The notes under the pieces: model-generated | Told to the model about the DNA's origin: nothing | Databases searched by the model: none | The model's input: only the letters and a program-made list of their open reading frames with translations | Part shown: piece after piece, positions 4,170 to 58,099 of the stretch | Position numbering within the stretch: the stretch's first letter is position 1 | Layout: every line of letters begins with the position of its first letter | Source: Marsupella aquatica | Taxonomy: Eukaryota > Plantae > Marchantiophyta | Length of the DNA stretch: 64,000 nt | NCBI GenBank assembly: GCA_973895155.1 | Contig: OZ316895.1 | Location: 20,164,803 to 20,228,802, forward strand | Direction: 5' to 3' | Position numbers and translations under genes: made by a program

Positions 4170-4599
4170 TCTAACTCCCCAAAGATAACCGACTACATAA
4201 AATAATGATACATGGTAAAATATAGCTAGATTGAATGGTTGAGGGTTTCTTCTTAATCCAAGTCTCAAACGGAAAGAGCCATCGAGCAGTTATAGGATCC
4301 GTTGGGTATGGATTTTCTTACCGTTCAAGAAACAACAAAACCATCAATTCGGTGGATAGTTACTGTTGAATTAATTTTGTTGGCGTTGTAACCGACGAGG
4401 TAATATAGTAGCGCCAGGCGCTAGCGTTTTCCACATCTGAAAGAGCCCAAAAATGAACAACAAAAGCAAAGATCAACGGCCATTTTGGTTAACATCTTAC
4501 GACAACTACTCATTATGACAACATTTAAGCTGAAATGTATCGGGTTTCCTTGGAAATAGCGTCTTATTTTTGGCAGACGACAATATTACCCTCTTCTAA

Positions 4600-15565: not shown

Positions 15566-16321
15566 TTCTTTGCACTTACGAAACCCAAACAATGATTAAA
15601 GAGAACAGGATTCAACAAATGGAAACATTATTCACGGTGGAATACGATGAATATCATGCCTTGTCGGAGAGTTCTTCCCTTAAAACAGCTCAAAGAATAG
15701 ACCCGTGCTTACCTGAACTAGATCTGGAGAGTGTTGAGAACTTGGAACACTGATAGCAGTTCCGAATGAAAGAGATCAAGTCGGAGGTGGTGGAAGTGAT
15801 CGGGAGAATGATTTGGAAGACTGGTGGTTTTTGGGCTAGCGGATTTGTTTAAGTGGACGGTTCGACGCCTTGGATTCGAGTCTGGTTCGAACGATAAGTG
15901 TCCCGTTCACTTGCAAGTGACTTAATTAGTGTCCAAACGGCCTTAATCCTCCTTTCCTTGGTAGTAATGACACGTTGATTCTTTTCACGCGGGAATCGCG
16001 AAGTACTTTTTTGTTATTACTCTTCCTCAGGTGGGAATTTTCACATGTGGAAGCCTGTACGTGGAGACCGTACCTCGTATGAGTGGCTCAATGTGTTGGC
16101 ATCATTAGACTAGCGATTTCGATGGCCTGAAGATATGTCATTTTGATCTATTGCATTCACGGGACTAGAATCGTCCATGGGTAGCCGTCTATATTTATTG
16201 ATCGAACAGGGTCTCCATGCTAGCGAGGAATATTCCAGACCTTTTTTGGGCCCCAATACAAGGTGACATCTTGCCCGTGCGAGCAAAAATTCTACTGTTT
16301 GCTCGCACGTTACAATTACCC

Positions 16322-39715: not shown

Positions 39716-42266
39716 TTACGTGCGTGCTGTGGTCGGGCCAGGGTTTGTCCTCTTGTCGGGGCAAGACCTCGAGCTGCCTTGATCAGAGGTGGGCCCAGGT
39801 CTTGCACGTTGGAGGACGAGTAGGGTAATGCGGTCCTGCAAGGCCTTATTGTCCCGTATGGCCTCTTCTACCTTGTTCGCAACTTCATTGGCCTCGACCT
39901 GGAGTCGTGCTACCTCCCGGTTGAGCTGGCCGATGGAGTCACGATGGGTCTGGTCCTGCGCCAGCAATTTATCTCACTCGGTGGAGAGACTAGCCACCTG
40001 TTGCGCTGACTGCAGGAGTTGGTTGTTGAGGTCGGTCAAGCTGGTAACTTGAGCCGAGGATTTTGAGCGCAACCAAAGCATGATGTCATCCAGCTTCTTG
40101 AGATCTGCTTGCGCCGTGCTCAACTCTTGGCTTAGTCCGTCTCGTTGTTCAACGGTGCGGACTAACTCCTCACGGTGGGTAGTGGCCTCCCCTTCGAGGT
40201 GTTTGACTAGCATTTGGAGGCGCCCGATCTCATTCCCCTTTGCCATGAGTTCTTCCTCCAAGTGGTTTACGATCCGCGGTTGGTGCTCTAACATGAAGAA
40301 GACCGATTGGAAGTATTTTGCGACTTGTTGCCCGATGTACGTCGCCAGCTCCCCTGACAAAGTCTGACTAAACTTCTGACTAAACTTCTGGACCAGGTCG
40401 TAGGCCATGGTCCTTGGGGCTACTTGGTAGTCCTCCATTCTCTCGGGCACCGGTGGTTCCTTGGGTGGGGCGGCGAGTTCCTCCGTAGTCAGCAATGGGG
40501 AGGGGAAGGTTTCTTCAGGTGGTGGAGGGATTGGGGGGTGGTTGTACCGGGGGTAGCGGAGGCTCGACGGAAGGGGGTGGCGGAATTTAAACAGGAGGAG
40601 GTGACGGAGTATTAGTTGGGGCCGCGGGCTCGGGGTTTGCTTGAGGCATGGTAGTCCGCTCGCTCGGGGTAGCTTCCTCCGGAGCGGGGGTGACATTAGT
40701 CAAGGCAAAGGTGGCCATATTCTTTCCCCTGGTGTCTCGCCACGCTTTGTACCAGGCGAGGATGATGGCGATATGACTTCCCAGGTAGGTCCTTCCCCCG
40801 ATAGCCATACCTCCTTGAGCCCGCTTGAGCTCCCCCGAGAACCTACGGTAAAAGAATTGGGCCCAGTTCCGCTGTTTGTACTATTCCACCTGTATGATCG
40901 TACAGAGGGAGATCTCGGATCGTGGCTCAATTATGTGTAGGGTAGTTCGTATGAAGTTAAGCCGCTCCATACAGATTAAGTTGGTGCACGACCCCTATTT
41001 GTACCTGTTGTCTGTCTTACCCTTGGGTTTGAAGTGCCGAGGTGTATACTCCTTATCCTAAATTTGGAGTTCAACCGACACCGGCCCGGTTGGTAGACAA
41101 AAGATCTGTGCCAACCGATGCTTCGTGAGTGATAAGGTCTGTCCTGAAACCTTGGTGGTCGATGCGTCAGTGTCAAAGTTGGATATGAACTCACAAATCT
41201 CCTTTGGCCCGGCTACGCAAGGTCTCCTTAGCAAGTGAGCGAACTGCTCCAACTGATGCTCCTTGAGATAGTCCGCGTGGTCGGGTTTCTTGATCGCGAT
41301 CCAAACTACCTCAAGACGTGGATTACCTATAATAAGGTAGACTTTGGATTATCCAAGGGCCGTCAGGTCTGGTTGGTCGGGGGGTTCTTCGGGGCAGGTG
41401 TAGGGGCGACGTTGGTTTGCGTTGTCAATTTGGGGCCCGACGTCGTCCTTGCCCACTTTGGAGAGCGCTGCTCAAGCTGAGGACTAACATGCTCGGAACC
41501 CGAGGAACACTCGGTGTTGTTCATGGATCAGACTTGGGACCGGTTTGGTGGTACGCCGGTGGTCATCGGCTGAGGGGTTGGGGGTGGTGTCGGGGTAGCC
41601 ATATCCCAGTTGAAGGCGTTGGAGCTTTCCCCAAGGAACATAAGATTATGCGCCGCTTCCCGTTGTTTGTTGATGTCTTCTTCACGCTTCTCGGTTGCAA
41701 TCTGCTGGTCGATGTATCCCGGAATCTTGTCAAACTCCGCTTGAGTTAGTCTCTGGCTGCCCCTCAGTCTAAAGAACTTTGCAAGGACTTCAAGAATTGC
41801 CTCTGCTACCGATCTAAACCCCTCCTTGCTGATATATAGCTCGATGATGTAATCCTGCAGCTTGTTATAACTGAATCCTTGGTGATGGTTGTCTTCTCAC
41901 AATTAACCTGTGCTACCTTGGCCACCAACTTTGCGTATCTTTGTTTGTAAGCAGCTTTCTCGGGGCAAGAGTACCAGTAAGTCTCGGAGAACTTAGCACC
42001 TACCTCGCCAAACAAGGTCCAAAATCCCAAGGCTGTAAGGGTCATACTAACCTTTGTAGTCTAGTTCGTCAAGTCCATGTTCCCGCCTGACATTTCCATT
42101 TTCTGGTGGCGGCCTTACTCGCCTTGACTAAATCTTGCCACAATTCGCTCTTAACCCTTGAGAAGTTCCTCATAAAAGGTAGCTTGATGTGACCAAAAGG
42201 CAAGAGTGAATGGCAGCATCCGCAAATTCCAAAAGGTAGAAATGAGCAAATGGGCCGCAGCACCAT
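39716..42266 (-). pseudogene. Fragmented accessory ORF homologous to the LTR-borne ORF
   Basis: ICEFISNFDTDASTTKVSGQTLSLTKHRLAQIFCLPTG matches LLEFVGSWEPETNCTRIYGKDFYLTPKVIAEVFGLPIG; a Pro-rich linker and coiled coil follow. Confidence 0.65.
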
Positions 42267-42313
42267 CGACTCCGCTCTTATGAAGGTGCCAGGGTGGGCT
42301 CGAGCGTGAGAGG

Positions 42314-45300
42314 TGTGATGCCTAGACAGGAATCACTCGGCCGGTTAAGTGGGTAAAGCAGGAAGGCACCCTAGGAACACCTTAGTATAGGGACAAAACA
42401 AGGAAAATATAAACAATTAGGGGCAACCATGGAACCCGAGCAGAGGCCGGAGGTAAGGCTGAGGGTGAAAACCCGATTAGGGTTAGGGCGCGTTAAGCGT
42501 CGGCGGCTAGGAAGGATCAACGGGAAGAAGGACCGGCAGAGGAGAGGGGTAAGGAGCGCTTGCAGGAGATGGTGGCTCATTTGCGAGCACGAACTAGGCA
42601 GACGACTACGGGAGGCCAACTACTGTCAGCTGCTTAGGTAAGCACTCGGGGAGAAAGTAGATACTGACGATCGACCTAAGGAGGGTATGAGCAACGTCAA
42701 TCAAGCGGCACATTTCTGGGGATGCCTGTTCGAACGGGCAACTGAGTACATCAAGACTTACGAGGACGAGGAGTCAGAAAGGGCAGCTCGAGAACGGCAG
42801 GAGCTCGCTCGATTGTGGGAGCTGCAGAAGACGGCTTTCTTAGGAGGCGAACTCATCAAGGACAAGTTCTTGTGGACGCCTACTTCCAATCAACTCGACG
42901 ATCTTCTGTTTTGCAAAGACAGCGTCGTCGGCATCCGAGAGGCCATCAAGAACTGCAATGACATACACTGGGAATTAAAGGGTAGCACGGAAAGGTGGAC
43001 CCAGGCAACGGTGCTAGGAGAAACCTCCACGGCAGCAGAGATGAAGAGGAAGGGAGCCGTCAACGATGAAGCCACCCCGGCAAAAAGAACGAGGTCGGCG
43101 GCACCAAAGAAGCCAGCCGAGCAGCAGAGCAGGAGGCAGGGAGAAGCCGAAGAGGAGGAGGTCGATCCCATCAAGGCCATTCCAACCAGGGATGACACCT
43201 GGAAGGGCTGGGCGGCAACCCTACCGGTGGAGGTGCAACTACATTTTGCACGGGAGGAGGATGCATGCTTTACGGCCATGCAGACCAAGAAGTACCAAGG
43301 CTTCATGGCCGGATCCGGCTTGGAGGCCTTTGTAAGATTACCATGGCTGAAGCCGGAGGTACCGGAGTCAGACCTATTAGAATTCGTGGGGTCATGGGAA
43401 CCCGAGACCAATTGCACGAGGATATATGGGAAGGATTTCTATCTTACTCCCAAGGTAATTGCCGAAGTGTTTGGCCTGCCGATAGGCAATAAGACCAAAG
43501 TTGATACCAGGAAGACCTTGCCTGACAAGGAGTTCCGGTCGTTCCCCGGGCCATCAACGAAGAATGGCTTCTTCCGGAACACCTGCACCAACCCGCACAT
43601 AGGAGAGATGATCGACTTCTTGCGGGTGACCATGCATTGTAACTTGCCGAGGGCAGAGATCGGCAAGGCACAGGTCTATCTGGCAGAAAGGCCAGAACCA
43701 AGCCGGGACTACAACGGGTACCTCCTCAACCAATTGAAGAAGATCTTAAAGGAGGAGCAGCAGGTAATCGGCATGGGGAGCGTGTCGCGGCTTGGCTATC
43801 ACATGCCGCTGTTGTGCCGGTATGCCAGAGGTCAGACTTTTGCCCCGGTACTTCCCCTGCAGGTAAGGGCACCCGAGGAAGCTCCAACGCCGAGGCCGTT
43901 GGCTGAGAAGCCTCAACCACCTGTTAGTCCTACGATCGAGCAGGTGTTTAGGCCCAGGAAGGAAGACTTGCCGATGCAGCAACCAGGCATGCAGAGTCTG
44001 CTGAAACTACTGGAGAAAGAAAAGAAATCGGCATCGGCAACAACAACGGCAACGACAACAATGCAGGATACTACTACAGAGGTAGGCCTACACCGGCTCA
44101 CAAGAGAAAACCCCTTTGCTGGAGACAAGGAGAGAATCAGGCCGGAATCCAAGCCAGGTGTTCGAATGTATGTGGGAACCTCAAGCTCCGAATCTGAGGC
44201 AGAATTGCCTGAAGCTCCTACCGACGAAGAGGAGAGGGAGAAGCCGGACGTCCAAGAGGTAGAGGAGGCAGTGGAGGACTGCAACCATGATAATTCCGGC
44301 TATGGGTCGGACCATCACGTTCCAGGAGTAAGGACCTGTGGCCGGTTTGTCCCCACACTTCCAAGGGTAGTGCGAGGGGACCCCAACCAGCAGAGTAGCC
44401 CTGAGTCTCCCCCACCAGATGTTACTCCCCCGAGCTTCGACGGCATAAAACAGACGGTGCAGGAATTTCAGGAGCGAATCAAGCAGGAGGAGGAGGCCGC
44501 CCTGGCTAAGGAAAAGGATTTACCAGGAGGAGATTGGCCGGAGGACATCAGGCGGCTAGCCGAAAAAGGAAGCAAACCTCTAGCCACGATTGAAGAGATC
44601 CGCAGGACGGCTTGGGAGCAGAGGCCACGATGGGCGATGCCGATCACTTCTACTTACTCCACCTACGCTAAGAATAGAGCCATGGAGTATGGTGAGATGT
44701 GTGGGGAACTTGCGCTCGGCATCTTTGGAGAGGAGTTGGAGGTAGGACCCTTTTTCCATAGGGAGCAGTTGGAGAAGCACCAATTAGAAGAAGCGGTGGC
44801 TTTAGAGAGAAGCAAGAAGGACGAGGTCATTCGGCGGCTTAGGAGGATGGAAGCCGAGATTGAAGATCTAAGGGCGGCCAAGAAAGCCCAAGATGAACTG
44901 CGGATTAAACGACATGAGCTGAACATCATGCAGGGGCAGTTGGACACCGCGCAGGCTGATAATCAGAATATCAAGGATAAACTGACTCAGACGCAGGAAG
45001 AGTTGGCCGACACGATCAAAGAGAGGGAGAAGTGGAAGCAAGAGCTGAAGAATACAGAGGAGGCCCACATAACAGCCAACAGCCGGGCCATGGCGGAGAC
45101 CCAAAGAAAGGAATGGGCGTTGAAAGGGGAGCTCGAGAAAATCCGCGGAGCCCTTGAGCAGAAGGAGGTCGAGTTAGGGAAATCCTATCAAGGGATTATG
45201 GCGCTGCAGCAGGAGCTTGCGTCCCTGACGGCCAGCTTCAAGGCCGACCTAAGGGAGAAGGACGAGATGCTCGAACAGACTTACGCCAAGATGAACCAGA

Positions 45301-46940
45301 TGGAGTCTGTCATCATTGCAGAGCTCGACAAGGAGCTAAGAGCAACCCAGGAGGAGAGGGCTACCTTGAAGAAGGAATTGGAGGAAGCCCACAGGGAGCA
45401 GGAGGAGGCCAAAAACGAGCTGGAGGGGGCACGTAAGGACCTGGATGAAACCCAAGAGGAGTTGGAGGAAATCACGAGGAAGATGGAGAACCTACAGCGG
45501 CGGGCCGACAACCAAACAGAGCGGCTGAAGAAACAAGCCGCAGTATTTAAATGCTTAGCTGCAGCAGGTCCATCTCCCGTTGGGACAAACCAGTTACCAG
45601 GGGTGGTAATTGCCGAAGGACAAGCCGCGCCAACTGCACCAGTGCCGGAAGTAAGTGGGAAGGGGAAGGGACCAGCTGCCGAGCCACCAACGAAGAAGAA
45701 GCGGAAACCTCCAGGGTCAAGGAGTAATACGACTTCACAGGCCGTGGTGATCAAGGAGGTAGACCCAGCACCGACCCCAGACAGGGTCACGGCTAGGGAT
45801 CCAACTACCCTAGGGGAAGGGGAGGCCGAAGCCGAGGGAGTGGCTGAGGCCGAAGCCGTGGGTATTGCCGAGGCCGGTGTCGAGGCTGAAGCCGAAGGTG
45901 GACCCAGTCAGGCCGATGGAGAGTTGACTCAGTCAAGGGCAGGTAATCTGTCAGAGAATGAACCTACGGCAGTGGCTGAGGAGGAAGCGTTGGGGGCGTC
46001 CATTAAGGATCCACCACCGGTGTCGTGACGGTGCAAGGGCGCCGTTCCTTTTAGGGAGGGCGGACGAGGAGGGAGGAGGCGTGAGTGGGCAGGGCGGGCG
46101 CGGATCTCCACGTTTAGGATTAGGATCAGAACCGGGAGCGGCCCTGACACTTAGCTTAGTGGGATTGCGGTCCCACTGGTAGGAGCAACACTTGTGCTCC
46201 TGCCTTGCTGTACATAGGTAGATTCGGGCAAGTAGATTACTGTTAAGTAGATTAGGCTTACGATGCAAAGAATGGCGGATCCACTACCAGGATAAGTACC
46301 TGGGCAGCGGGGAGCTCAGGGCCTCTTCTTTAGCAAGTTTTTAGTTTGCACCAGCCGGGCTGGGATCAAGTAGTACGAGAAGCTCTCGGTTAGTCATACA
46401 GTGACCCTTCTGTATATTCATGTTTCCTCATGCCTAAGAGCTGAATAGAGTTGGCCTCACGGCTTAGTTCGCAGAACTTGTGTATGAGATGTACTGTTTG
46501 TATGGCAAGTGCATGGTATGACTCAGTCAGAATGAGTCATTTTGCTATTTGTGTGTCGCATTAACTTGTGTGAAGAGTGCCCACATCAACAGAAGGAAGG
46601 AAAGTAAGCAGGGGAGTGAGAGTTGGATGTGTCGAGCTGAGAGAGGTCTTAGCGGCTTAACCAAGCCTATTGGGGATCATTCCGGCGGCGGAATCCAAAC
46701 ATACCTAACAAGAAGACAGGGGAAGACAGGGGAAGGCCTATATTAGGCCGGCTACGTATCTCATGACCCGATGAAGGATCTGTCCAGTATATGTGTGTAA
46801 AATGTTAATAGTAGTAGTAGAAAGTTAGCAGCGTCCCATGCTGCTAAGCCGCGGAAATGGCCTCGCCAAGCATGAAACCTGCGGGAATCGGCTTGAGCTG
46901 GGGGGTTTCTTGGGTTTAGGGAGCCATGGGACGCACCACA
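42314..46940 (+). repeat. 5' LTR (4627 bp)
   Basis: TGTGATGCC...GCACCACA. Direct repeat of 53165-57791 with roughly two dozen substitutions by eye, mostly transitions. Confidence 0.96.
42687..46028 (+). CDS. LTR-embedded 1113-aa accessory protein (plant-transposon-protein-like domain + long coiled coil)
   Basis: Uninterrupted ORF lying wholly within the LTR, with an E/K/Q-rich heptad region. Confidence 0.85.
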   Translation: MSNVNQAAHFWGCLFERATEYIKTYEDEESERAARERQELARLWELQKTAFLGGELIKDKFLWTPTSNQLDDLLFCKDSVVGIREAIKNCNDIHWELKGSTERWTQATVLGETSTAAEMKRKGAVNDEATPAKRTRSAAPKKPAEQQSRRQGEAEEEEVDPIKAIPTRDDTWKGWAATLPVEVQLHFAREEDACFTAMQTKKYQGFMAGSGLEAFVRLPWLKPEVPESDLLEFVGSWEPETNCTRIYGKDFYLTPKVIAEVFGLPIGNKTKVDTRKTLPDKEFRSFPGPSTKNGFFRNTCTNPHIGEMIDFLRVTMHCNLPRAEIGKAQVYLAERPEPSRDYNGYLLNQLKKILKEEQQVIGMGSVSRLGYHMPLLCRYARGQTFAPVLPLQVRAPEEAPTPRPLAEKPQPPVSPTIEQVFRPRKEDLPMQQPGMQSLLKLLEKEKKSASATTTATTTMQDTTTEVGLHRLTRENPFAGDKERIRPESKPGVRMYVGTSSSESEAELPEAPTDEEEREKPDVQEVEEAVEDCNHDNSGYGSDHHVPGVRTCGRFVPTLPRVVRGDPNQQSSPESPPPDVTPPSFDGIKQTVQEFQERIKQEEEAALAKEKDLPGGDWPEDIRRLAEKGSKPLATIEEIRRTAWEQRPRWAMPITSTYSTYAKNRAMEYGEMCGELALGIFGEELEVGPFFHREQLEKHQLEEAVALERSKKDEVIRRLRRMEAEIEDLRAAKKAQDELRIKRHELNIMQGQLDTAQADNQNIKDKLTQTQEELADTIKEREKWKQELKNTEEAHITANSRAMAETQRKEWALKGELEKIRGALEQKEVELGKSYQGIMALQQELASLTASFKADLREKDEMLEQTYAKMNQMESVIIAELDKELRATQEERATLKKELEEAHREQEEAKNELEGARKDLDETQEELEEITRKMENLQRRADNQTERLKKQAAVFKCLAAAGPSPVGTNQLPGVVIAEGQAAPTAPVPEVSGKGKGPAAEPPTKKKRKPPGSRSNTTSQAVVIKEVDPAPTPDRVTARDPTTLGEGEAEAEGVAEAEAVGIAEAGVEAEAEGGPSQADGELTQSRAGNLSENEPTAVAEEEALGASIKDPPPVS

Positions 46941-46944
46941 TTTT

Positions 46945-46962
46945 TGGCGCTAGATGGAGGGG
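46945..46962 (+). promoter_or_regulatory. Primer-binding site TGGCGCTAGATGGAGGGG
   Basis: TGG-initiated motif 4 nt after the 5' LTR CA end. Confidence 0.8.
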
Positions 46963-47009
46963 GCATTTCTTAAGCCGTGAGATATGAAGTTAGAACGGAA
47001 GCGTAGGTA

Positions 47010-50003
47010 ATGACTGACCTTACGCCGAGGGAAGAAAGAGTGATTCAACGGGAGAGAGCTCGACTGCAGCAGCTCGCCGGGTGGCATGATACACAGCGAC
47101 TGAGAGGGGCAGAAAGAGCTGGTAGCTCCGAAACTGGAAGTGGCATCGAAGAAGACATACCAGAAGAAGAGTCGGTAAGGAGAAGTGAGTCTCCAACCGA
47201 CATGGGGGAACCAGAGGCACGGCCAGACGAGAGGCCAGGGACCAGATTGAGCCAGCGGTCGCGCATACATTACAAGGCATTTCATGGGAGAGGAGATGAG
47301 GATCCGGACGAATGGTTGGATGATTTCGAGGGAACCGCTGCAGCAAATGGAGAATCGGCCATCAAGATGCAGATTCTTCCCGGCCTGTTCAAGGGTGAGG
47401 CTAGGCCTTGGTACAGAGCATTAGATGTGGAAGATCAAGCCATCTGGGATATCTTCAAAACACTTTTTGTTAAGGAGTTTCGACCCATTGGAACTTCAGA
47501 ACTAGCAGTGCTGAAGTTGGGACAACTTCGGTTCAAGGAGAACAAATCCTTCAGAAAGTTCTTGCAACGCTTTCAGAAACTGGTAAGACGTACAAAGACC
47601 AATGCATCTGAAGGTATGCAACTTCAATGGTTGGTGAATGCTTTGCCACAGAAGATGAGTTTTGCAATTAGGAAGGAGAACCCGGAGACTTTAGCCGAAG
47701 CAATTAAGGATATTCAATTATACATTAATGCAGATATCACAAGCCGGAAGAAATAGCTTAAGTCTGAGAGTTCCTCATCAGAGGAGGGATCACCCCATAA
47801 GAAAAAAGATAAGAAGAAGAAACATTCCAAGAAGTCTAGAAGTGATAAGTCAAGCTCGGATAGTGGGAGTAGCAAGAGTGAGTCATCTTCTAGTTCTGAA
47901 GAAGAAAAAACTAGGAAAAGGAAGGGCAGAAGGAGAGGGAAGACGAAAGTCAAGATGGAGGCTAAGCCACCAGATAACATCGTAGCCCTTACCGAGCAAC
48001 TTAAGGCTATCATTGCAGAGGTAAAACCAAAGAAGAAGGTAGTACAGGAGGATAGCTCTGTATGGTGTGCCTTATGTTATAAAACCGGACACCATAAAGA
48101 TGCGTGTCCTAAGCTTAATACTAATCATGTTCGGCATGTGGCCGAGATCAGACCATGTCAGGGAGAAGTAGAGTACTTTTTGGGAGATGCCGCTGATAGT
48201 GTTTTCGGCATCAGTGAGACTGGAGCACGAGACCTATCCAACAGACCTGCATCTCTGTGGTCAGGGTTAAGGAACAATCCAGGAGAGATGTATCCTCGGA
48301 TTATTCAGAACCCGTCAGTACCTCCTAGGCCGAATGTGCAAAGATTTGCGGCGTGCTATAATTGTGGTCAACCTGGCCATTTTGCTAGAGAATGCCCGAA
48401 TGCACGCAAACAGGGTGATGGACAACCAGCTCAGCTATGTATGGGATGCCGACAGGAAGGTCATATGCTAGGGCAATGTCCTACTTGGTTGGCAGGCCTG
48501 GCAGCAAATCATAAGCTTTTGCCGATCAAGATCTTACCGCCAGGTACTACCCCCAGAGGAGTTCAAATCAACCACATCGAACTAGGATGGCAAGAGGATG
48601 CCGAGGCAGAGTTCGTACCATCTGATGATGAGGCCGAAGCCCTATCAACCTTCTCAGAGGAGGATTTAGATCATGATTGCTACCGGGTCTCTACTCGATC
48701 TACCAGAAGGAAGGAAAGGTGGGATGGGCTGGCCAAAAATAAAGGGAAGGTTACGGAGGAAAGGATCGACTCTTCGTCAACATCAACAGAAGGAGAAGGG
48801 AGGGCTCCGGCAATACAGGTAAGCCATGAGCCCACCAGTGAAACCAATCCTTCACAAGATAGCGACTTCAATCGAGATCATCCTAAGTTGTTCTACCCCT
48901 CTGTTACGGCTAGTGTTAAGGAACAACTAAGAGAATTAGAAACCCTGGAGAATACCGAAGCCATTGCCAAGGATGTAAAACGAGCAAAAGCATTGTTTGC
49001 TTCGGAAGACCCAACAGCTGTGGAGACTAGCGTGGCAAAACTGGCCGAATCCAAGACGGAAACACCACCAGAAGAGAAGCCGATTGTTCCCTATGACCTG
49101 GCTAAAGATGTACTAGAATCTAGAGTCTCGGCAACAGTAGGTCAACTATTGAAAAATAGCCCGTACTTCCGGAAGCAATTAAGGAAGGCTATTCTCGGCA
49201 AGCCGAGATTACCCAAGGTAGCAACCAGATCCGACGTACTAATGATAGAAGAAGATCAAGGAGCCCCAGCATTACCATTAATGATTCAAGGAGAATTATT
49301 ACTACAGGTACCCATCGATGGAGGATCAGGGGTATGTATTATGATTGATTCAACAGCAAAAGGGTGGGGTCTAACACCGGAGATGACTGGAAGAGTGTTG
49401 AACATGGCCAATGGATATCAGGTCATTCCGACGGGAGTGTTAACCGGCATCAAGACAGAGATAGGAGGTATCTTCTTTAGCATTAACTATGTAGTAATGA
49501 AGCCGGTAAATCCTACGTCATTCCGGCTATTGATTGGTAGGCCATGGCTGTACCTAGCCGAGGTAATAGAAGATTGGGGTAAAAAGCAGTTCACTTTCGG
49601 GACCCCCTCTATCACGGTATCCTGGGACACTAAGGATGACCGTAGGAAAAGCATAAGGGAAGTAGATGGGTACGACAGTGGACTGGAGTCAGCCGATGAA
49701 GTACGTTGGTTAGAATGCCTCACTAACCTAACCGAAGAAGGTGTCTTTGGACCAGAGGTACCCCCCAGCGGATTATGGCAAGAACCAATGGAAGGTGACT
49801 TGGAAGAAGAAGACGAAGAGGTCGAGGACTGCTTTACAATAGAATCCACCTTTTTAGCTGCAATTCCGGAGGAAGTAAAGGATGTAGACCAATTGGATGA
49901 AACGGCTAAGTGGGGAGCAGTAGCAGGGACAGTGGATTTTCTACAGGCGTTGTGGCAGAGCCGACGGGGTCCACAACGCCATCGATCATCGGCAAGGAAT
50001 TAA
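47010..50003 (+). CDS. gag: Gag (capsid, CCHC zinc knuckles) + aspartic protease; one in-frame TAG at 47754-47756
   Basis: Retrotransposon gag-like EDPDEWL..F / ARPWY; knuckles CALCYKTGHHKDAC, CYNCGQPGHFAREC and CMGCRQEGHMLGQC; protease PIDGGSG. ORFs 47010 and 47955 are in the same frame. Confidence 0.88.
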
Positions 50004-53000
50004 ATACCAAGGGATCGGCATACAAGCCGATTACGAGGGCAGAACAAATTGAGGCCCTATTAGAAGCCGAGAGAGCACAGCGGCCTAACTCTCAGGAGCA
50101 AGAGGTGGATGAGATGGACAGACACGATCCAGAGCCAAGGCAGGAAGGGGAGCCGACCACTAATTCAAAACCGAATAGACCGGTAAGGGGACAATCTATG
50201 GACACCAAGGAAGGGACCGACTCGGCTAGTCCAGCCGAGATCCCAGTTTATGGAGGTATGAGATTAGAGAGACTGGAAGCCGAACTGGACCCGAATTTGA
50301 AGAAGCAGATTAATATGATCCAAGCACGGCAATATCGGAAGCTCGACTTAGGAGAGGGAAGAGAACTGAACTTAGGGAGAAACCTAGCACCTGAGCTCGA
50401 GAAAGAGATCAGTGACTTATTGATTGAATTTCAGGATGTGTTTGCATGGAGTCACCAAGATCTAAAGGGAGTAGATCCAACACTAGGGGAACATCGAATT
50501 GATCTCATGTTAGGAGCCAAATCATTTCGACAACCAATTCGAAGGATGAACCCGAAGTATTCCCTGCTGGTCAAAACAGAAATCGACAAACTAGTGGAAG
50601 CTGGATTCATCACTCCAGTCCTGCATTCAGACTGGGTGTCTCCAATTGTGATAGTTCCCAAGAAAGCTGGACCCGATGGTAAACCCAAGATCCGGGTTTG
50701 TCAGGATTACAGGAAGCTGAATGAAGCAACATTAAAAGACCATTTTCCTTTACCGTTTACTGATATGGTACTAGACATGGTAGCCAGTCATGAACTATAT
50801 TCATTCATGGATGGATACTCTGGTTATAACCAAATCAGGATTCGGCAGGAAGACCAAATCAAGACGGCCTTCATCACGGAATGGGGGATCTATGTCTTCA
50901 ATCGTATGCCGTTTGGACTCTGCAACGCACCAGCTATGTTCCAACGATTAATGGTGAACATTTTTCATGATTACTTGAGAAAGTTCATGGAAATCTTCAT
51001 TGATGACTTTGCAGTATTCGGGAAGGCATCGAAACATGCTAAATACCTCAGGAAAACCTTCATGAGATGTAGAGAGGTGGGTCTCAAGTTACACCCAGAT
51101 AAATGTTTTTTTGCAGTAACCGAGGGGGTGCTACTAGGTCACAAGGTATCAAGGAAGGGCATTGAGATTGACAAAGGTAAGCTAGCAGTATGGCTAGATA
51201 TCATGCAACCTAAGAACATAAAGGATGTAAGATCCTTCTTGGGATGCATTGGTTACTATCGCCGGTTCATCAAGGATTTTGCCAAGCTGGCTTTACCATT
51301 AACCAATATGCTCAAGGCAGGAGCAGACTTCGAACCCACACCCGAACGAGTCACAGCGGTGGTAGAATTGAAGCAGATGTTAGTAGAGGCCCCAGTCATG
51401 ATAGCACCGGACTGGAACAAAGATTTTCATGTTTTTGTAGATGTCTCGGGCTTCTGTATTGGCTTAGTACTAAGTCAGTTGGATGAGAAAGGAAGGGACC
51501 ATCCCATATACTTCGCAAGCCATCAGCTTGCCGATGCCGAACGGAACTACTCTACCACGGAAAGAGAAGCATTAGGAGTCATTTATTCTTGTAAAAAGTT
51601 TAGGCATTATTTACTAGGGTACAAGGTAATCTTTCATACTGATCATGAAAGTTTGAAGTACCTAGTCAATAAGCCGGACCTTACAGGCAGAGTAGCAAGA
51701 TGGATTTTGCTATTACAGGAGTTTGACTATGAGCTGAGGATCAAGCCGGGAAAGTTACATGCCAATGCCGACTTCTTTTCAAGGATCACAGGTAAACCTG
51801 CCACGGATTGCATCGATGATCGATTCCCCGACGAGGAGCTATTCGTTGTGGAAATAGCTGGTACATGGTACCCTGAGATTTTACAATTTCTCAGCACTTC
51901 CAGATTACAGCCAGGATTAAGCCGAGAGCAAGCCGCAGTCTTTGTGCGGAAGGTCAGACAGTATCAGTGCATTAAAGGCATACTGCACAAGCATGGAATC
52001 AACGGCACGATTCAAAGGTGTTTGGAAAAGAGAGAGGTAAAACGAGTCCTACGGGCCATGCATGGAGAGGAGGCCGGAGGACATTTTGCCCCAGTAACCA
52101 CGTCTAAGAAGATATTAAATGCCGGTTACTGGTGGCCCACCTTGCACAAAGATGTCTATCAGTTTATCAAACAATGCGATCCTTGTCAACGAGCGGGAGG
52201 ACCAAGGGCGTCCACCAGGCATCCACTGCACCCTATTCTACCTCTGGCACCATTCGAGAAGTGGGGTATTGATTACATTGGACCTCTGAAACCACTGACC
52301 CACCCTCGATGGAACAAGTACATAATCCTGGCTACGGATTATGCAACTAAATGGGTAGAGGCCAGACCAACAACGAAGGATGATGCAATTACTACGGCTA
52401 GATTCATGTATGAGCAGATCTTCACCAGGTATGGAGCACCCCTAGAATTAGTTAGTGATAGAGGAACCCATTTTTTGAATGATATAATTAGTCGTTTAAA
52501 TGAGCAGTATTTAGTTAAACATAGGCCTACTACTCCCTACCATCCAAAGGCAAACGGGTTGACAGAACGAGCAAACGGAATCATAGGAAAGATATTGAAC
52601 AAGACAGTAGCTCAGAACAAACTCGATTGGGATGATAAATTGTTTGCTGCTGTTTTTGCTTACAATCTTGCCTATAAATCCACTACCGGTCATACACCCT
52701 TCTTCTTAACCTTTGGACAAGAAGCCCTGGTACCCATGCAACTTGAGATACCGACATTTCAAGTTACAATTGAGGAAAGAGCCTCAGCGGAGGAGAGCCT
52801 AAAGGAGCGAGAATATAGGTTAGAAGCTTTAGAGGAAGCGAGAATGATTTCAGCCGAGAGAGTAGAATATAGACAGAATATCATGAAGCAGCAGTATGAT
52901 AAAAGGTTAAAAGTAGTTAGTATTCATACCGGTGATCTTGTGCTACTTTATGACAGTAGGTATAGTAGGTTTCCAGGAAAGCTTTACACTCGCTGGTTAG

Positions 53001-53176
53001 GACCCTTTAGAGTAACCATGATGTTCCCCAATGGCTCCGTACAATTGGCCAACATTACGGGAGAGGTATATCCAGTTCGCATCCATTATGACCGCCTCAA
53101 GAAATACTATATGGACGAAGATGAAGTTGTTCGCGAGGATGCTTCACAATTAAGTGGGGAGCTATGTGATGCCTAG
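49910..53176 (+). CDS. pol: Pol: reverse transcriptase, RNase H, integrase
   Basis: RVCQDYRKLN, MDGYSGYNQI, MPFGLCNAP, FIDDF; RNase H DVSGF..YSTTEREAL..TDH; integrase H-H-C-C, WGIDY, VSDRG, NGLTER, WLGPF. Confidence 0.95.
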   Translation: MGSSSRDSGFSTGVVAEPTGSTTPSIIGKELNTKGSAYKPITRAEQIEALLEAERAQRPNSQEQEVDEMDRHDPEPRQEGEPTTNSKPNRPVRGQSMDTKEGTDSASPAEIPVYGGMRLERLEAELDPNLKKQINMIQARQYRKLDLGEGRELNLGRNLAPELEKEISDLLIEFQDVFAWSHQDLKGVDPTLGEHRIDLMLGAKSFRQPIRRMNPKYSLLVKTEIDKLVEAGFITPVLHSDWVSPIVIVPKKAGPDGKPKIRVCQDYRKLNEATLKDHFPLPFTDMVLDMVASHELYSFMDGYSGYNQIRIRQEDQIKTAFITEWGIYVFNRMPFGLCNAPAMFQRLMVNIFHDYLRKFMEIFIDDFAVFGKASKHAKYLRKTFMRCREVGLKLHPDKCFFAVTEGVLLGHKVSRKGIEIDKGKLAVWLDIMQPKNIKDVRSFLGCIGYYRRFIKDFAKLALPLTNMLKAGADFEPTPERVTAVVELKQMLVEAPVMIAPDWNKDFHVFVDVSGFCIGLVLSQLDEKGRDHPIYFASHQLADAERNYSTTEREALGVIYSCKKFRHYLLGYKVIFHTDHESLKYLVNKPDLTGRVARWILLLQEFDYELRIKPGKLHANADFFSRITGKPATDCIDDRFPDEELFVVEIAGTWYPEILQFLSTSRLQPGLSREQAAVFVRKVRQYQCIKGILHKHGINGTIQRCLEKREVKRVLRAMHGEEAGGHFAPVTTSKKILNAGYWWPTLHKDVYQFIKQCDPCQRAGGPRASTRHPLHPILPLAPFEKWGIDYIGPLKPLTHPRWNKYIILATDYATKWVEARPTTKDDAITTARFMYEQIFTRYGAPLELVSDRGTHFLNDIISRLNEQYLVKHRPTTPYHPKANGLTERANGIIGKILNKTVAQNKLDWDDKLFAAVFAYNLAYKSTTGHTPFFLTFGQEALVPMQLEIPTFQVTIEERASAEESLKEREYRLEALEEARMISAERVEYRQNIMKQQYDKRLKVVSIHTGDLVLLYDSRYSRFPGKLYTRWLGPFRVTMMFPNGSVQLANITGEVYPVRIHYDRLKKYYMDEDEVVREDASQLSGELCDA
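53152..53161 (+). promoter_or_regulatory. Polypurine tract
   Basis: AAGTGGGGAG just upstream of the 3' LTR TG. Confidence 0.6.
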
Positions 53177-56100
53177 ACAGGAATCACTCGGCCGGTTAAG
53201 TGGGTAAAGCAGGAAGGCACCCTAGGAACACCTTAGTATAGGGACAAAACAAGGAAAATATAAACAATTAGGGGCAACCATGGAACCCGAGCAGAGGCCG
53301 GAGGTAAGGCTGAGGGTGAAAACCCGATTAGGGTTAGGGCGCGTTAAGCGTCGGCGGCTAGGAAGGATCAACGGGAAGAAGGACCGGCAGAGGAGAGGGG
53401 TAAGGAGCGCTTGCAGGAGATGGTGGCTCATTTGCGAGCACGAACTAGGCAGACGACTACGGGAGGCCAACTACTGTCAGTTGCTTAGGCAAGCACTCGG
53501 GGAGAAAGTAGATACCGACGATCGACCTAAGGAGGGTATGAGCAACGTCAATCAAGCGGCACATTTCTGGGGATGCCTGTTCGAACGGGCAACTGAGTAC
53601 ATCAAGACTTACGAGGACGAGGAGTCAGAAAGGGCAGCTCGAGAACGGCAGGAGCTCGCTCGATTGTGGGAGCTGCAGAAGACGGCTTTCTTAGGAGGCG
53701 AACTCATCAAGGACAAGTTCTTGTGGACGCCTACTTCCAATCAACTCGACGATCTTCTGTTTTGCAAAGACAGCGTCGTCGGCATCCGAGAGGCCATCAA
53801 GAACTGCAACGACATACACTGGGAATTAAAGGGTAGCACGGAAAGGTGGACCCAGGCAACGGTGCTAGGAGAAACCTCCACGGCAGCAGAGATGAAGAGG
53901 AAGGGAGCCGTCAACGATGAAGCCACCCCGGCAAAAAGAACGAGGTCGGCGGCACCAAAGAAGCCAGCCGAGCAGCAGAGCAGGAGGCAGGGAGAAGCCG
54001 AAGAGGAGGAGGTCGATCCCATCAAGGCCATTCCAACCAGGGATGACACCTGGAAGGGCTGGGCGGCAACCCTACCGGTGGAGGTGCAACTACATTTTGC
54101 ACGGGAGGAGGATGCATGCTTTACGGCCATGCAGACCAAGAAGTACCAAGGCTTCATGGCCGGATCCGGCTTGGAGACCTTTGTAAGATTACCATGGCTG
54201 AAGCCGGAGGTACCGGAGTCAGACCTATTAGAATTCGTGGGGTCATGGGAACCCGAGACCAATTGCACGAGGATATATGGGAAGGATTTCTATCTTACTC
54301 CCAAGGTAATTGCCGAAGTGTTTGGCCTGCCGATAGGCAATAAGACCAAAGTTGATACCAGGAAGACCTTGCCTGACAAGGAGTTCCGGTCGTTCCCCGG
54401 GCCATCAACGAAGAATGGCTTCTTCCGGAACACCTGCACCAACCCGCACATAGGAGAGATGATCGACTTCTTGCGGGTGACCATGCATTGTAACTTGCCG
54501 AGGGCAGAGATCGGCAAGGCACAGGTCTATCTGGCAGAAAGGCCAGACCCAAGCCGGGACTACAACGGGTACCTCCTCAACCAATTGAAGAAGATCTTAA
54601 AGGAGGAGCAGCAGGTAATCGGCATGGGGAGCGTGTCGCGGCTTGGCTATCACATGCCGCTGTTGTGCCGGTATGCCAGAGGTCAGACTTTTGCCCCGGT
54701 ACTTCCCCTGCAGGTAAGGGCACCCGAGGAAGCTCCAACGCCGAGGCCGTTGGCTGAGAAGCCTCAACCACCTGTTAGTCCTACGATCGAGCAGGTGTTT
54801 AGGCCCAGGAAGGAAGACTTGCCGATGCAGCAACCAGGCATGCAGAGTCTGCTGAAACTACTGGAGAAAGAAAAGAAATCGGCATCGGCAACAACAACGG
54901 CAACGGCAACAATGCAGGACACTACTATAGAGGTAGGCCTACACCGGCTCACAAGAGAAAACCCCTTTGCTGGAGACAAGGAGAGAATCAGGCCGGAATC
55001 CAAGCCAGGTGTTCGAATGTATGTGGGAACCTCAAGCTCCGAATCTGAGGCAGAATTGCCTGAAGCTCCTACCAACGAAGAGGAGAGGGAGAAGCCGGAC
55101 GTCCAAGAGGTAGAGGAGGCAGTGGAGGACTGTAGCCATGATAATTCCGGCTATGGGTCGGACCATCACGTTCCAGGAGTAAGGACCTGTGGCCGGTTTG
55201 TCCCCACACTTCCAAGGGTAGTGCGAGGGGACCCCAACCAGCAGAGTAGCCCTAAGTCTCCCCCACCAGATGTTGCTCCCCCGAGCTTCGACGGCATAAA
55301 ACAGACGGTGCAGGAATTTCAGGAGCGAATCAAGCAGGAGGAGGAGGCCGCCCTGGCTAAGGAAAAGGATTTACCAGGAGGAGATTGGCCGGAGGACATC
55401 AGGCGGCTAGCCGAAAAAGGAAGCAAACCTCTAGCCATGATTGAAGAGATCCGCAGGACGGCTTGGGAGCAGAGGCCACGATGGGCGATGCCGATCACTT
55501 CTACTTACTCCACCTACGCTAAGAATAGAGCCATGGAGTATGGTGAGATGTGTGGGGAACTTGCGCTCGGCATCTTTGGAGAGGAGTTGGAGGTAGGACC
55601 CTTTTTCCATAGGGAGCAGTTGGAGAAGCACCAATTAGAAGAAGCGGTGGCTTTAGAGAGAAGCAAGAAGGACGAGGTCATTCGGCGGCTTAGGAGGATG
55701 GAAGCCGAGATTGAAGATCTAAGGGCGGCCAAGAAAGCCCAAGATGAACTGCGGATTAAACGACATGAGCTGAACATCATGCAGGGGCAGTTGGACACCG
55801 CGCAGGCTGATAATCAGAATATCAAGGATAAACTGACTCAGACGCAGGAAGAGTTGGCCGACACGATCAAAGAGAGGGAGAAGTGGAAGCAAGAGCTGAA
55901 GAATACAGAGGAGGCCCACATAACAGCCAACAACCGGGCCATGGCGGAGACCCAAAGAAAGGAATGGGCGTTGAAAGGGGAGCTCGAGAAAATCCGCGGA
56001 GCCCTTGAGCAGAAGGAGGTCGAGTTAGGGAAATCCTATCAAGGGATTATGGCGCTGCAGCAGGAGCTTGCGTCCCTGACGGCCAGCTTCAAGGCCGACC

Positions 56101-57791
56101 TAAGGGAGAAGGACGAGATGCTCGAACAGACTTACGCCAAGATGAACCAGATGGAGTCTGTCATCATTGCAGAGCTCGACAAGGAGCTAAGAGCAACCCA
56201 GGAGGAGAGGGCTACCTTGAAGAAGGAATTGGAGGAAGCCCACAGGGAGCAGGAGGAGGCCAAAAATGAGCTGGAGGGGGCACGTAAGGACCTGGATGAA
56301 ACCCAAGAGGAGTTGGAGGAAATCACGAGGAAGATGGAGAACCTACAGCGGCGGGCCGACAACCAAACAGAGCGGCTGAAGAAACAAGCCGCAGTATTTA
56401 AATGCTTAGCTGCAGCAGGTCCATCTCCCGTTGGGACAAACCAGTTACCAGGGGTGGTAATTGCCGAAGGACAAGCCGCGCCAACTGCACCAGTGCCGGA
56501 AGTAAGTGGGAAGGGGAAGGGACCAGCTGCCGAGCCACCAACGAAGAAGAAGCGGAAACCTCCAGGGTCAAGGAGTAATACGACTTCACAGGCCGTGGTG
56601 ATCAAGGAGGTAGACCCAGCACCGACCCCAGACAGGGTCACGGCTAGGGATCCAACTACCCTAGGGGAAGGGGAGGCCGAAGCCGAGGGAGTGGCTGAGG
56701 CCGAAGCCGTGGGTATTGCCGAGGCCGGTGTCGAGGCTGAAGCCGAAGGTGGACCCAGTCAGGCCGATGGAGAGTTGACTCAGTCAAGGGCAGGTAATCT
56801 GTCAGAGAATGAACCTATGGCAGTGGCTGAGGAGGAAGCGTTGGGGGCGTCCATTAAGGATCCACCACCGGTGTCGTGACGGTGCAAGGGCGCCGTTCCT
56901 TTTAGGGAGGGCGGACGTGGAGGGAGGAGGCGTGAGTGGGCAGGGCGGGCGCGGATCTCCACGTTTAGGATTAGGATCAGAACCGGGAGCGGCCCTGACA
57001 CTTAGCTTAGTGGGATTGCGGTCCCACTGGTAGGAGCAACACTTGTGCTCCTGCCTTGCTGTACATAGGTAGATTCGGGCAAGTAGATTACTGTTAAGTA
57101 GATTAGGCTTACGATGCAAAGAATGGCGGATCCACTACCAGGATAAGTACCTGGGCAGCGGGGAGCTCAGGGCCTCTTCTTTAGCAAGTTTTTAGTTTGC
57201 ACCAGCCGGGCTGGGATCAAGTAGTACGAGAAGCTCTCGGTTAGTCATACAGTGACCCTTCTGTATATTCATGTTTCCTCATGCCTAAGAGCTGAATAGA
57301 GTTGGCCTCATGGCTTAGTTCGCAGAACTTGTGTATGAGATGTACTGTTTGTATGGCAAGTGCATGGTATGACTCAGTCAGAATGAGTCATTTTGCTATT
57401 TGTGTGTCGCATTAACTTGTGTGAAGAGTGCCCACATCAACAGAAGGAAGGAAAGTAAGCAGGGGAGTGAGAGTTGGATGTGTCGAGCTGAGAGAGGTCT
57501 TAGCGGCTTAACCAAGCCTATTGGGGATCATTCCGGCGGCGGAATCCAAACATACCTAACAAGAAGACAGGGGAAGACAGGGGAAGGCCTATATTAGGCC
57601 GGCTACGTATCTCATGACCCGATGAAGGATCTGTCCAGTATATGTGTGTAAAATGTTAATAGTAGTAGTAGAAAGTTAGCAGCGTCCCATGCCGCTAAGC
57701 CGCGGAAACGGCCTCGCCAAGCACGAAACCTGCGGGAATCGGCTTGAGCTGGGGGGTTTCTTGGGTTTAGGGAGCCATGGGACGCACCACA
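53165..57791 (+). repeat. 3' LTR (4627 bp)
   Basis: Direct repeat of 42314-46940. Confidence 0.96.
53280..56879 (+). CDS. LTR-embedded accessory protein, second copy (1199 aa from the first ATG)
   Basis: Near-identical to the 42687 ORF. The upstream extension is open here (CAA) but stopped (TAA) in the 5' LTR. Confidence 0.85.
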   Translation: MEPEQRPEVRLRVKTRLGLGRVKRRRLGRINGKKDRQRRGVRSACRRWWLICEHELGRRLREANYCQLLRQALGEKVDTDDRPKEGMSNVNQAAHFWGCLFERATEYIKTYEDEESERAARERQELARLWELQKTAFLGGELIKDKFLWTPTSNQLDDLLFCKDSVVGIREAIKNCNDIHWELKGSTERWTQATVLGETSTAAEMKRKGAVNDEATPAKRTRSAAPKKPAEQQSRRQGEAEEEEVDPIKAIPTRDDTWKGWAATLPVEVQLHFAREEDACFTAMQTKKYQGFMAGSGLETFVRLPWLKPEVPESDLLEFVGSWEPETNCTRIYGKDFYLTPKVIAEVFGLPIGNKTKVDTRKTLPDKEFRSFPGPSTKNGFFRNTCTNPHIGEMIDFLRVTMHCNLPRAEIGKAQVYLAERPDPSRDYNGYLLNQLKKILKEEQQVIGMGSVSRLGYHMPLLCRYARGQTFAPVLPLQVRAPEEAPTPRPLAEKPQPPVSPTIEQVFRPRKEDLPMQQPGMQSLLKLLEKEKKSASATTTATATMQDTTIEVGLHRLTRENPFAGDKERIRPESKPGVRMYVGTSSSESEAELPEAPTNEEEREKPDVQEVEEAVEDCSHDNSGYGSDHHVPGVRTCGRFVPTLPRVVRGDPNQQSSPKSPPPDVAPPSFDGIKQTVQEFQERIKQEEEAALAKEKDLPGGDWPEDIRRLAEKGSKPLAMIEEIRRTAWEQRPRWAMPITSTYSTYAKNRAMEYGEMCGELALGIFGEELEVGPFFHREQLEKHQLEEAVALERSKKDEVIRRLRRMEAEIEDLRAAKKAQDELRIKRHELNIMQGQLDTAQADNQNIKDKLTQTQEELADTIKEREKWKQELKNTEEAHITANNRAMAETQRKEWALKGELEKIRGALEQKEVELGKSYQGIMALQQELASLTASFKADLREKDEMLEQTYAKMNQMESVIIAELDKELRATQEERATLKKELEEAHREQEEAKNELEGARKDLDETQEELEEITRKMENLQRRADNQTERLKKQAAVFKCLAAAGPSPVGTNQLPGVVIAEGQAAPTAPVPEVSGKGKGPAAEPPTKKKRKPPGSRSNTTSQAVVIKEVDPAPTPDRVTARDPTTLGEGEAEAEGVAEAEAVGIAEAGVEAEAEGGPSQADGELTQSRAGNLSENEPMAVAEEEALGASIKDPPPVS

Positions 57792-58099
57792 AGAGGGCAA
57801 GGCCGTTTTGGTCATTGATAATGAGCTGAAGTTGGCGTCTCGGTCCAAGCGTGATTCCCTTCCTTAATTCGTAATCATTCAGTCAACTAACCTACTCCTA
57901 ATCTATTCATAATGGCAAAGACGGCTACTTGTGATATTCTACATTACGGCTACGGTCCTAATGACCGTATAAGTCCTAATCTAGGACCTGCGTTCGGTTA
58001 AGTGACACGTTACCCGTGTCACACAAGGATAGAGAGAAGAGCTACTAAACAAGCCCTCTGTCAGTCAGGGGGACTAGTAGAAGGAGAAGTTGAAAACTT

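Follow-up and report, generated by a model that had tools for sequence, protein, structure and literature searches.

A gene within both long terminal repeats

We analysed a window of 64,000 nucleotides from the liverwort Marsupella aquatica (contig OZ316895.1, positions 20,164,803 to 20,228,802 of the forward strand), in which a young Ty3/Gypsy retrotransposon of 15.5 kb occupies positions 42314 to 57791 on the plus strand. The element is bounded by long terminal repeats (LTRs) of 4,627 bp, at 42314..46940 and 53165..57791, and each of them contains a long gene in sense orientation. An alignment of the two repeats over all 4,627 bp showed 99.5% identity, with 23 substitutions and no gaps. Both repeats start with TG and end with CA, and their outer flanks are the 5-bp target-site duplication (TSD) AGAGG (42309..42313 and 57792..57796, plus strand). 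A primer-binding-site (PBS)-like sequence, TGGCGCTAG, lies 4 bp past the 5′ LTR (46945..46960) and is presumably of the tRNA-Asn type. A purine tract at 53152..53161, the polypurine tract (PPT), stands directly before the 3′ LTR and overlaps the last integrase codons.

The gene covers 42687..46028 in the 5′ LTR and 53538..56879 in the 3′ LTR, and both copies comprise 1,113 codons without a single stop from the ATG at 42687 or 53538. The LTR is thus coding over 72% of its length, and the longest stop-free run in 1,000 LTR shuffles was 343 codons. The 3′ copy has an ATG farther upstream, at 53280, from which it likewise stays open (1,199 codons); in the 5′ copy the frame is stopped at 42639-42641, before the second ATG is reached. 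Translation probably starts at this second ATG, since a homologue found in database searches (P0018) and a decayed sister copy in the window begin, in weak matches, at about the same place. Changes between the two LTRs in the gene frame were neutral-looking (6 synonymous, 11 missense and 1 stop) and are uninformative on selection at the family level; the read data gave 12 variants within the gene, 5 synonymous and 7 otherwise, a set that was pre-selected and too small. The preliminary description, made from the letters of the window, had reported an intact gene of more than 1100 codons lying wholly within both LTRs in sense orientation, and this was borne out in each copy. We hold this anatomy to be close to certain.

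Two further observations were made in the LTR leader and the non-coding parts. A short out-of-frame upstream open reading frame (ORF), at 53420-53488 and 42569-42637, precedes the likely start codon and could limit translation of the gene. The telobox-like word TTAGG, which was chosen post hoc, was enriched in the non-coding LTR parts (53165-53537 and 56880-57791; 13 versus 3.7 expected, reached in 0 of 300 shuffles) and in the non-coding parts of the older sister unit described below (10 versus 3.9, 1 of 300 shuffles), and it was not enriched in the LTR of a third, gene-less element (6 versus 4.0).

Public sequencing runs (numbered X1, X2 and so on) were used to examine the ends of the repeats. 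Parts of the LTR were found in 15 of the 17 listed runs, none of these holders being recorded as RNA, and at least half of the LTR words in six runs, which came from four studies with four organism labels. Runs X1 and X5 match the right-hand junction of the older unit without a difference and, as they may stem from the source organism itself, are not independent of the window's DNA. Past 57791, contigs with loose flanks were found in X2 (42), X1 (13) and X3 (4), and because these flanks agreed poorly with each other (0.36-0.55), many insertion sites appear to share one LTR end. One X1 contig ran on from the LTR end into the PBS. The empty site, in which the 42308 side leads directly into 57792, was present in three of four runs (8 contigs in X1, 7 in X2 and 2 in X3). 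At the other end, the alignment of an X6 contig stopped at 42314, and a joint in X2 landed there. With TG...CA termini, the TSD, the PBS, the PPT and many differing flanks at one end, the 4,627-bp repeats are the true LTRs, as had first been proposed.

The opposite case, in which the long repeat would have arisen by misassembly or by tandem recombination and only its last 0.85 kb would be a true LTR, had been put forward as the outcome that would overturn the preliminary description. A purine-rich run followed by TG lies just 3′ of the gene (46053..46083), one X2 contig links 46940 back to 46095, and the element in the window is spanned by no long read, all of which fit a shorter LTR. However, the 23 substitutions between the copies show a transition and CG bias, the TSD lies at the outer ends and is accompanied by empty-site contigs, and a second family in the window has the identical layout. 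Nor was there a step in depth 3′ of the gene: the tail-to-gene ratio of summed contig depth was 0.95 in X1 and 1.14 in X2, and gene plus tail reached 3.1-3.9 times the interior, where summed contig depth is not copy number and served solely to look for a step between the gene and the LTR tail. In the public read data the run at 46053..46083 is not used as the main LTR end; it is possibly a relic of an older PPT, and the X2 contig may represent a minor short-LTR form of the element besides the 4,627-bp form. The artefact or recombinant was thereby largely refuted, and we regard it as very improbable.

The Kimura two-parameter distance between the LTRs was 0.0050, which at angiosperm rates would place the insertion about 0.2-0.4 million years ago and possibly earlier in a liverwort. 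Among the LTR-to-LTR transitions, 10 of 21 fell at CG sites, compared to 18% expected (p 0.002).

Gag and pol take up the whole 6.2-kb interior, and the domain order gag, protease, reverse transcriptase (RT), RNase H, integrase is that of Ty3/Gypsy elements. The gag region, with capsid and zinc knuckles, and the protease-like region extend over 47010..50003 (plus strand), as read from the sequence, Pfam and relatives; gag begins 70 bp past the 5′ LTR. The protease was assigned by reading the sequence and aligning it to relatives and has no Pfam match. The pol frame, encoding RT, RNase H and integrase (49910..53176, plus strand), ends 12 bp within the 3′ LTR. In this copy a stop (47754-47756) and a change of frame (near 49910-50003) interrupt gag-pol, which the preliminary description did not mention; the relative P0035 runs from gag to RNase H in one protein of 1,700 amino acids. 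Pfam gave no match in pol to an extra RNase H or a chromodomain. The closest named RT-RNase H sequences were from Calypogeia fissa (69-70% identity) and Riccia sorocarpa (54-60%), and angiosperm matches reached 35-51%. In a tree of 32 RT-RNase H sequences the element grouped with two Calypogeia proteins (support 95/97) within a clade of 20 rows, apart from 12 angiosperm rows; this tree had no outgroup and no Phygy, Selgy or Tat references, and 30 of its rows were hand-picked from 120 hits.

Placement among the described Gypsy lineages was compared with published accounts. Athila elements have a 5-bp TSD and a size of 7.3-22.8 kb (PMC6317226). The element agrees with Athila in these respects (15.5 kb) and in its lack of an extra RNase H or chromodomain; it departs from Athila in the position of the extra ORF, which there stands between pol and the 3′ LTR and here, with pol ending in the LTR, within the LTR itself. 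The presumed tRNA-Asn type of the PBS would also suit Athila, whose PBS is for tRNA-Asp, -Asn or -Ala. Membership in Phygy was rejected, as that lineage requires a 4-bp NCGN TSD (PMC6317226) and the element has the 5-bp AGAGG. The extra archaeal-type RNase H of Tat, Ogre and Retand elements was not present. Since some liverwort Tat clades lack the extra RNase H (PMC10508981), its absence leaves Tat Z1 or Z2 possible.

Predicted fold of the LTR-encoded protein

The protein was read as a globular domain (43146..43898 in the 5′ copy, placed by its offset from the 3′ copy, in which the modelled domain is 53997..54749), followed by a long predicted coiled coil (55617..56445) and a KKKRK run near the C-terminus that resembles a nuclear signal (56544-56558), all on the plus strand. 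The coiled coil, which had been anticipated in the preliminary description, was predicted by sequence reading, and coiled-coil Pfam families matched it below threshold only. No Pfam family passed its cut-off for the protein, and neither the protein nor its 22 search hits had a Pfam match to Transposase_32 (PF20167), ATHILA ORF-1 (PF03078), PF10536, DUF1985 or DUF287.

The domain had been likened in the preliminary description to Transposase_32, and this likeness was retained as a lead. Atlas language-model features pointed to Transposase_32 and ATHILA ORF-1 at 0.88 (141 of 256 features), which is under the line of 0.9, and to no other named family once these two were skipped. Against it stand the missing Pfam match and an hhalign comparison of a three-sequence profile with Transposase_32 and ATHILA ORF-1, which gave a probability of 0.13. 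The structural link to VANC21, an anti-silencing protein encoded by the Arabidopsis transposon VANDAL21, was stronger.

When residues 240-490 were searched against 1.84 billion representatives, 22 hits were obtained, and three of the ten hit clusters that were looked up named Calypogeia fissa. Hits P0005, P0007 and P0020 were repeat proteins with unrelated Pfam domains and were dropped as spurious; the final domain alignment kept 16 homologues. An AlphaFold2 model of the domain built from a 17-row alignment had a predicted local distance difference test score (pLDDT) of 73 and a predicted template modelling (TM) score of 0.70, the best of five models with pLDDT 51-73. The top Foldseek row for this model was the VANC21-DNA crystal structure (E 0.85, TM score 0.45, 11% identity), with the other listed rows at TM scores of 0.16 or less. 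VIA-align of the model and VANC21 gave a Z of 9.3 with 217 residues aligned, for which the root-mean-square deviation (rmsd) was 4.3. In a wide structure search of 48,161 PDB representatives, VANC21 was the sole chain with a Z of at least 5 (Z 9.2, rmsd 4.1, 211 aligned), and the next chain reached 2.1. The match spans nearly the whole domain, with residues 10-240 of the model corresponding to VANC21 285-552. These comparisons predict a VANC21-like DNA-binding fold for the domain of the LTR gene.

A sequence search of the PDB with the profile gave two rows with E 0.5-0.8, neither of them VANC21, and the viral structure library held nothing at E 0.001, its best row being unnamed (E 0.055, TM score 0.32). 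For the first 321 residues, modelling from the sequence alone gave a pLDDT of 38.6, too low for use. Word-index protein searches found no relative of 659-2,099 amino acids and none of 1,379-3,935, the latter range being derived from the alignment and too long to help, and metagenome and viral scans for the LTR gene gave no match.

The gene had also been described as an accessory gene in env position. The position stood, at most, in that the gene follows pol in sense, as do the env-like ORFs described elsewhere (PMC7264820), but an env-like nature was not supported. No membrane segment was found in the protein, in which the top 19-residue hydropathy was 0.82; the KKKRK run resembles a nuclear signal, and the model matches the fold of a DNA-binding protein. 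An envelope-like membrane protein is thus scarcely credible.

A dispersed DNA word and a nested sister unit

The word WWGCCG is scattered through the element. From the start of the interior to the end of the 3′ LTR (46941..57791) there are 80 copies in 10,851 bp, 37 internal and 43 in the 3′ LTR; neither strand and none of the six frame-strand classes is without them, and the 5′ LTR holds 42 further copies. Excess was measured against synonymous-codon shuffles of four coding segments. GCCGA occurred 57 times compared to 27.3 expected, TCGGCA 25 times compared to 5.7 (z 8.9, best null word z 4.9) and ATGCCGA 11 times compared to 1.6 (z 9.1, best null word z 6.0); the three words had z values of 7.0-9.1, and the best words in 30 null sets reached 4.4-6.0. 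WWGCCG itself was in excess in the gene (37 versus 11.3 expected; maximum of 500 shuffles 21) and in gag-protease (16 versus 4.9; maximum 11). Its CG dinucleotide is otherwise depleted in the element (CpG observed/expected 0.62-0.66). The density was 7.4 per kb in the young element, compared to 1.1 in positions 1-36327, 0.8 in an older gene-bearing unit and 0.7-1.3 in a gene-less element. A higher CpG ratio in the gene-bearing units (0.62-0.84 versus 0.37-0.50) was set aside as a signal, since both age and the motif confound it.

The older unit is on the minus strand, and the young element is inserted in it. Its main part covers 38728..42313, and its first 227 bp lie at 57797..58023, placed by sequence and read contigs; together they form a TG...CA unit of 3.8 kb, flanked by CAAGG at 38723-38727 and 58024-58028, and the gag frame of a host element continues across it. 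In a read test of the right-hand end (58023-58026), the depth at 58026 dropped from about 20,000-45,000 to about 100 in X1 and X2, and the alignment of several contigs stopped at 58023-58025. The unit carries a decayed gene with 26% identity to the LTR gene over 237 residues, and its copy scored 119.7 bits (E 4e-38) against a profile built without it. The layout is that of the young LTR, with a domain (41303-40746), a proline-rich linker and a coiled coil (about 40699-39827), preceded by about 0.5 kb and followed by 0.9 kb. The unit is most likely the solo LTR of a sister family with its gene retained. The expectation that a solo LTR would keep a whole gene thus found a candidate within the window itself, in which the homologue has decayed. 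The older unit has a word of its own: GACTAA occurred 11 times in its main part, at 3.1 per kb over the unit compared to 0-0.3 in the other two elements, and in its coiled-coil frame GACTA[AC] was found 7 times versus 1.2 expected (0 of 500 synonymous shuffles).

The third element is a decayed host Gypsy at 36328-38727 and 58024-64000, with an LTR of about 1.6 kb (36328..37918, plus strand, the start being guessed from a terminal inverted repeat), a PBS at 37926, a gag split by the nested units and pol from 60893. The host pol was 61% identical to that of the young element, and the host LTR showed no long ORF and no profile match to the LTR gene. The decayed host element, the older unit and the young element therefore form three nested layers. 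An AT-rich, strongly CpG-depleted insertion (observed/expected 0.2) was also seen within the host gag-pol at about 59120-60880; the ranges searched yielded no TG...CA pair with a 5-bp TSD for it.

The placement of the gene within the LTR was considered from both ends. Because gag-pol fills the interior flush at both ends, spacing cannot separate U3 from U5. A U3 position reached by relocation of the PPT, as first proposed, is plausible. If the gene instead lay in R or U5, it would be an Ogre-like 5′ extra ORF absorbed by a shift of the PBS and the first ORF on the genomic RNA, which concerns placement and is compatible with the function proposed below. The LTR has a TATAAA-like run at 95 bp, which would suit this arrangement, and the gag start 70 bp past one LTR and the pol end inside the other fit both shifts. 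In Ogre elements the plant mobile domain (PMD) lies 5′. It is reported in 57% of these elements (PMC6317226). In the same source, however, ATHILA ORF-1 hits are 3′ and in sense in 166 of 168 cases, and the purine run and TG just 3′ of the gene point the same way. Also opposed to R/U5 is a hairpin plus A-rich motif 261, 199 and 186 bp from the 3′ end in the young LTR, the older unit and the host LTR, respectively (5′ LTR 46680..46707 and 3′ LTR 57531..57558, plus strand; older unit 38899-38926, minus strand), which suggests polyadenylation after the gene. The host-family copy contains AATAAA. The pattern was derived from those three LTRs, with no match in 100 shuffles and a folding z of only -0.15 to -1.5. 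We consider the R/U5 placement unlikely. Separately, 17 IMG/VR matches to the LTR-end motif were judged to be chance, none having pol or gene homology.

The remainder of the window contains other mobile DNA. Between 4409 and 35781 the 15-bp palindrome TAGCGCCWGGCGCTA occurs in 27 copies (at most two mismatches; 0.03 expected) among repeated transposase-like and other ORFs, which suggests a cluster of DNA transposons that has a motif array of its own. Within it, a minus-strand ORF of 636 codons (23744-25687) is a remote homologue of the LTR gene domain by hhalign (probability 91, E 1e-6; score 51.8, shuffles at most 16.5) and may, judging by its sequence, be the counterpart of VANDAL/VANC in a liverwort. 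At 10795-14513 and 25795-29300 (both plus strand) lie two sets of broken ORFs, related to each other, that end in CxCx..CKH, which we take to be the SWIM finger of Mutator-like transposases; neither set has a Pfam match. Three related gene copies (6602-10152 and 16195-20242 on the minus strand, 30483-34163 on the plus strand) have a DGNHR motif, presumably ParB-like, and their C-terminal parts show a weak, sub-threshold resemblance to N6/N4 DNA methylases (PF01555, E 0.01-0.08); a putative transposon-borne methylase beside a CCWGG-centred palindrome is worth a look. The end of a further element, at 1-4300, carries a coiled-coil ORF on the minus strand (493-2346) and 14 copies of CCGYGAG, and homology of this ORF to the LTR gene domain was not supported (hhalign probability 1).

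Proposed function and known systems

We lean slightly towards a self-targeting mechanism, in which the predicted VANC21-like protein encoded in the LTR of this young Gypsy element would bind WWGCCG in its own element and hold off host silencing. The gene, within U3 or R, would use its own promoter in the first 370 bp of the LTR, where the TATAAA-like run lies, and end at the LTR polyadenylation site, and reverse transcription would copy it to both ends of the element. The 5′, 3′ and solo LTRs would each keep the whole gene, and the protein could be supplied in trans. The coiled coil might oligomerise the protein across many sites, and binding might lower DNA methylation or H3K27me3, or activate transcription. 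Protein and motif would diverge jointly, family by family.

Several observations weigh against this. The Foldseek E-value is not significant, identity to VANC21 is 7-11% and the model is of moderate quality; a common fold is no proof of a common function, and with 32 K+R and 33 D+E the domain carries no net basic charge. WWGCCG in pol (13 versus 5.9 expected) only equalled the largest shuffle (13), the first gag piece had no excess (2 versus 1.0), and GACTA[AC] had none in the older domain frame (2 versus 1.3). An order-3 Markov test gave no significant word, probably because the element's own 4-mer counts take up the signal. Since other regions of the window also have top words with z 5-9 in dinucleotide shuffles, a word excess is not unique to the two gene-bearing units. 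The motifs were found post hoc, and the linkage of gene and motif is based on three elements. The copies of WWGCCG are scattered and lie for the most part in coding DNA, unlike the targets of VANC, which are arrayed in tandem in non-coding DNA; the young element was found to have neither spaced palindromes nor tandem arrays of the motif. As five TG...CA/TSD pairs arose in the search range of the older unit, its TSD alone is no proof. The main contrary result is the CG bias among the LTR-to-LTR transitions, by which this copy was probably methylated at CG after insertion.

The limits of the fold match, the CG-biased decay and the charge of the domain also suit a gene of PMD/VANC-type fold with another job, such as tethering of the integration complex to chromatin, plain transactivation or a particle scaffold, with WWGCCG due to a host factor or family-specific mutation bias. 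Coiled-coil pentamers have been predicted for proteins with the Athila domain and for VANC proteins (PMC13547354), which would agree with such a role. But two gene-bearing units have different motifs and their gene-less sister has neither, which would not be readily expected of a host factor, and WWGCCG contains the CG that is otherwise depleted. We find another job doubtful, and the self-targeting reading is the one we prefer.

A broader claim would be that a liverwort Gypsy lineage has a full VANC-type anti-silencing system in its LTR, and that VANC, MAIN/PMD and the Athila extra ORF are one ancient retrotransposon-borne fold predating flowering plants. This is possible, but we would not yet favour it. 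If true, every LTR, solos included, would by itself encode a sequence-specific DNA-binding protein, with the target word of each family written through that family's coding DNA. A gene in the LTR would alter the arms race with the host, whose usual route of deletion, solo-LTR recombination, would spare it. Gene annotators, and repeat finders whose LTR limits are short, are liable to mislabel coding LTRs. A protein able to open chromatin wherever a short word occurs could serve as a new tool for the epigenome. The role of extra ORFs in plant Gypsy elements is described as an open question (PMC7264820, PMC11963269), and the origin of the PMD, in a retrotransposon or a host gene, is stated to be fully open (PMC5418596). 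Both can be tested at this locus, which supplies a candidate protein and word, a sister family whose word differs, and a control element lacking the gene.

The closest comparison is with VANC21/VANDAL21 (PDB 9lnj, 9lnk). VANC recognises short motifs specific to its family and strips methylation (PMC5735166), shares a fold with MAIN/PMD and has been described as dicot-specific (both PMC13547354). Shared with it are the predicted fold over about 215 residues, the coiled coil, the encoding by a transposon and a short family-specific motif that is enriched in the element and replaced by another in a sister family. VANDAL21, in contrast, is a Mutator-like DNA transposon of Arabidopsis, here the gene is inside the LTR of a liverwort Gypsy element, the LTR-encoded protein is distant in sequence and has no DUF1985 or DUF287 match, and the word is spread through coding DNA instead of standing in non-coding arrays.

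The PMD proteins MAIN, MAIL1 and MAIL2 and PMD-A have a reported VANC-like fold; MAIL proteins are found at specific motifs, and PMD-motif modules oppose Polycomb silencing (10.1101/2024.09.27.615353). PMD-A is encoded by Gypsy elements, and its ancestry is called fully open (PMC5418596). The surveys, in their available portions, cover angiosperm proteins, show no function for PMD-A and make no mention of an LTR location, and the LTR gene has no PF10536 match. With the Athila extra ORF the gene shares a sense position after pol in a non-chromovirus Gypsy element without extra RNase H, a globular domain followed by a coiled coil, and the Atlas leads. Athila ORFs, however, are described as internal (PMC6317226, PMC11728184), whereas here there is no spacer, the gene stands in both LTRs without a Pfam match, and pol falls among liverwort elements, separate from those of angiosperms. 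Whether Athila ORFs modulate the methylation of their own element has been asked and left open (PMC12844716). Ogre elements (LTRs of 1.9-6.5 kb) have very long LTRs, discussed in terms of length, and an extra ORF with a PMD-type domain, but their extra ORFs lie in an interior of 11-13 kb and they have the extra RNase H, neither of which applies to the young element (PMC6431247). Plant extra ORFs are in general described as belonging to the internal region (PMC7264820, PMC11963269, PMC11728184). In the literature on ORFs inside plant LTRs, on liverwort Athila (including PMC12885004) and on VANC with Athila, the arrangement was not found in the text available, most subscription papers being outside this coverage.

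Among animal retroviruses, regulatory ORFs in or overlapping U3 are duplicated by reverse transcription, as in sag of mouse mammary tumour virus and the 3′ accessory genes of foamy viruses and human immunodeficiency virus; these ORFs are much shorter and their proteins are unrelated to that of the LTR gene. The novelty of the liverwort element would lie in the joining of an LTR-internal gene with a predicted VANC-type fold and a family-specific word, each kind being known separately.

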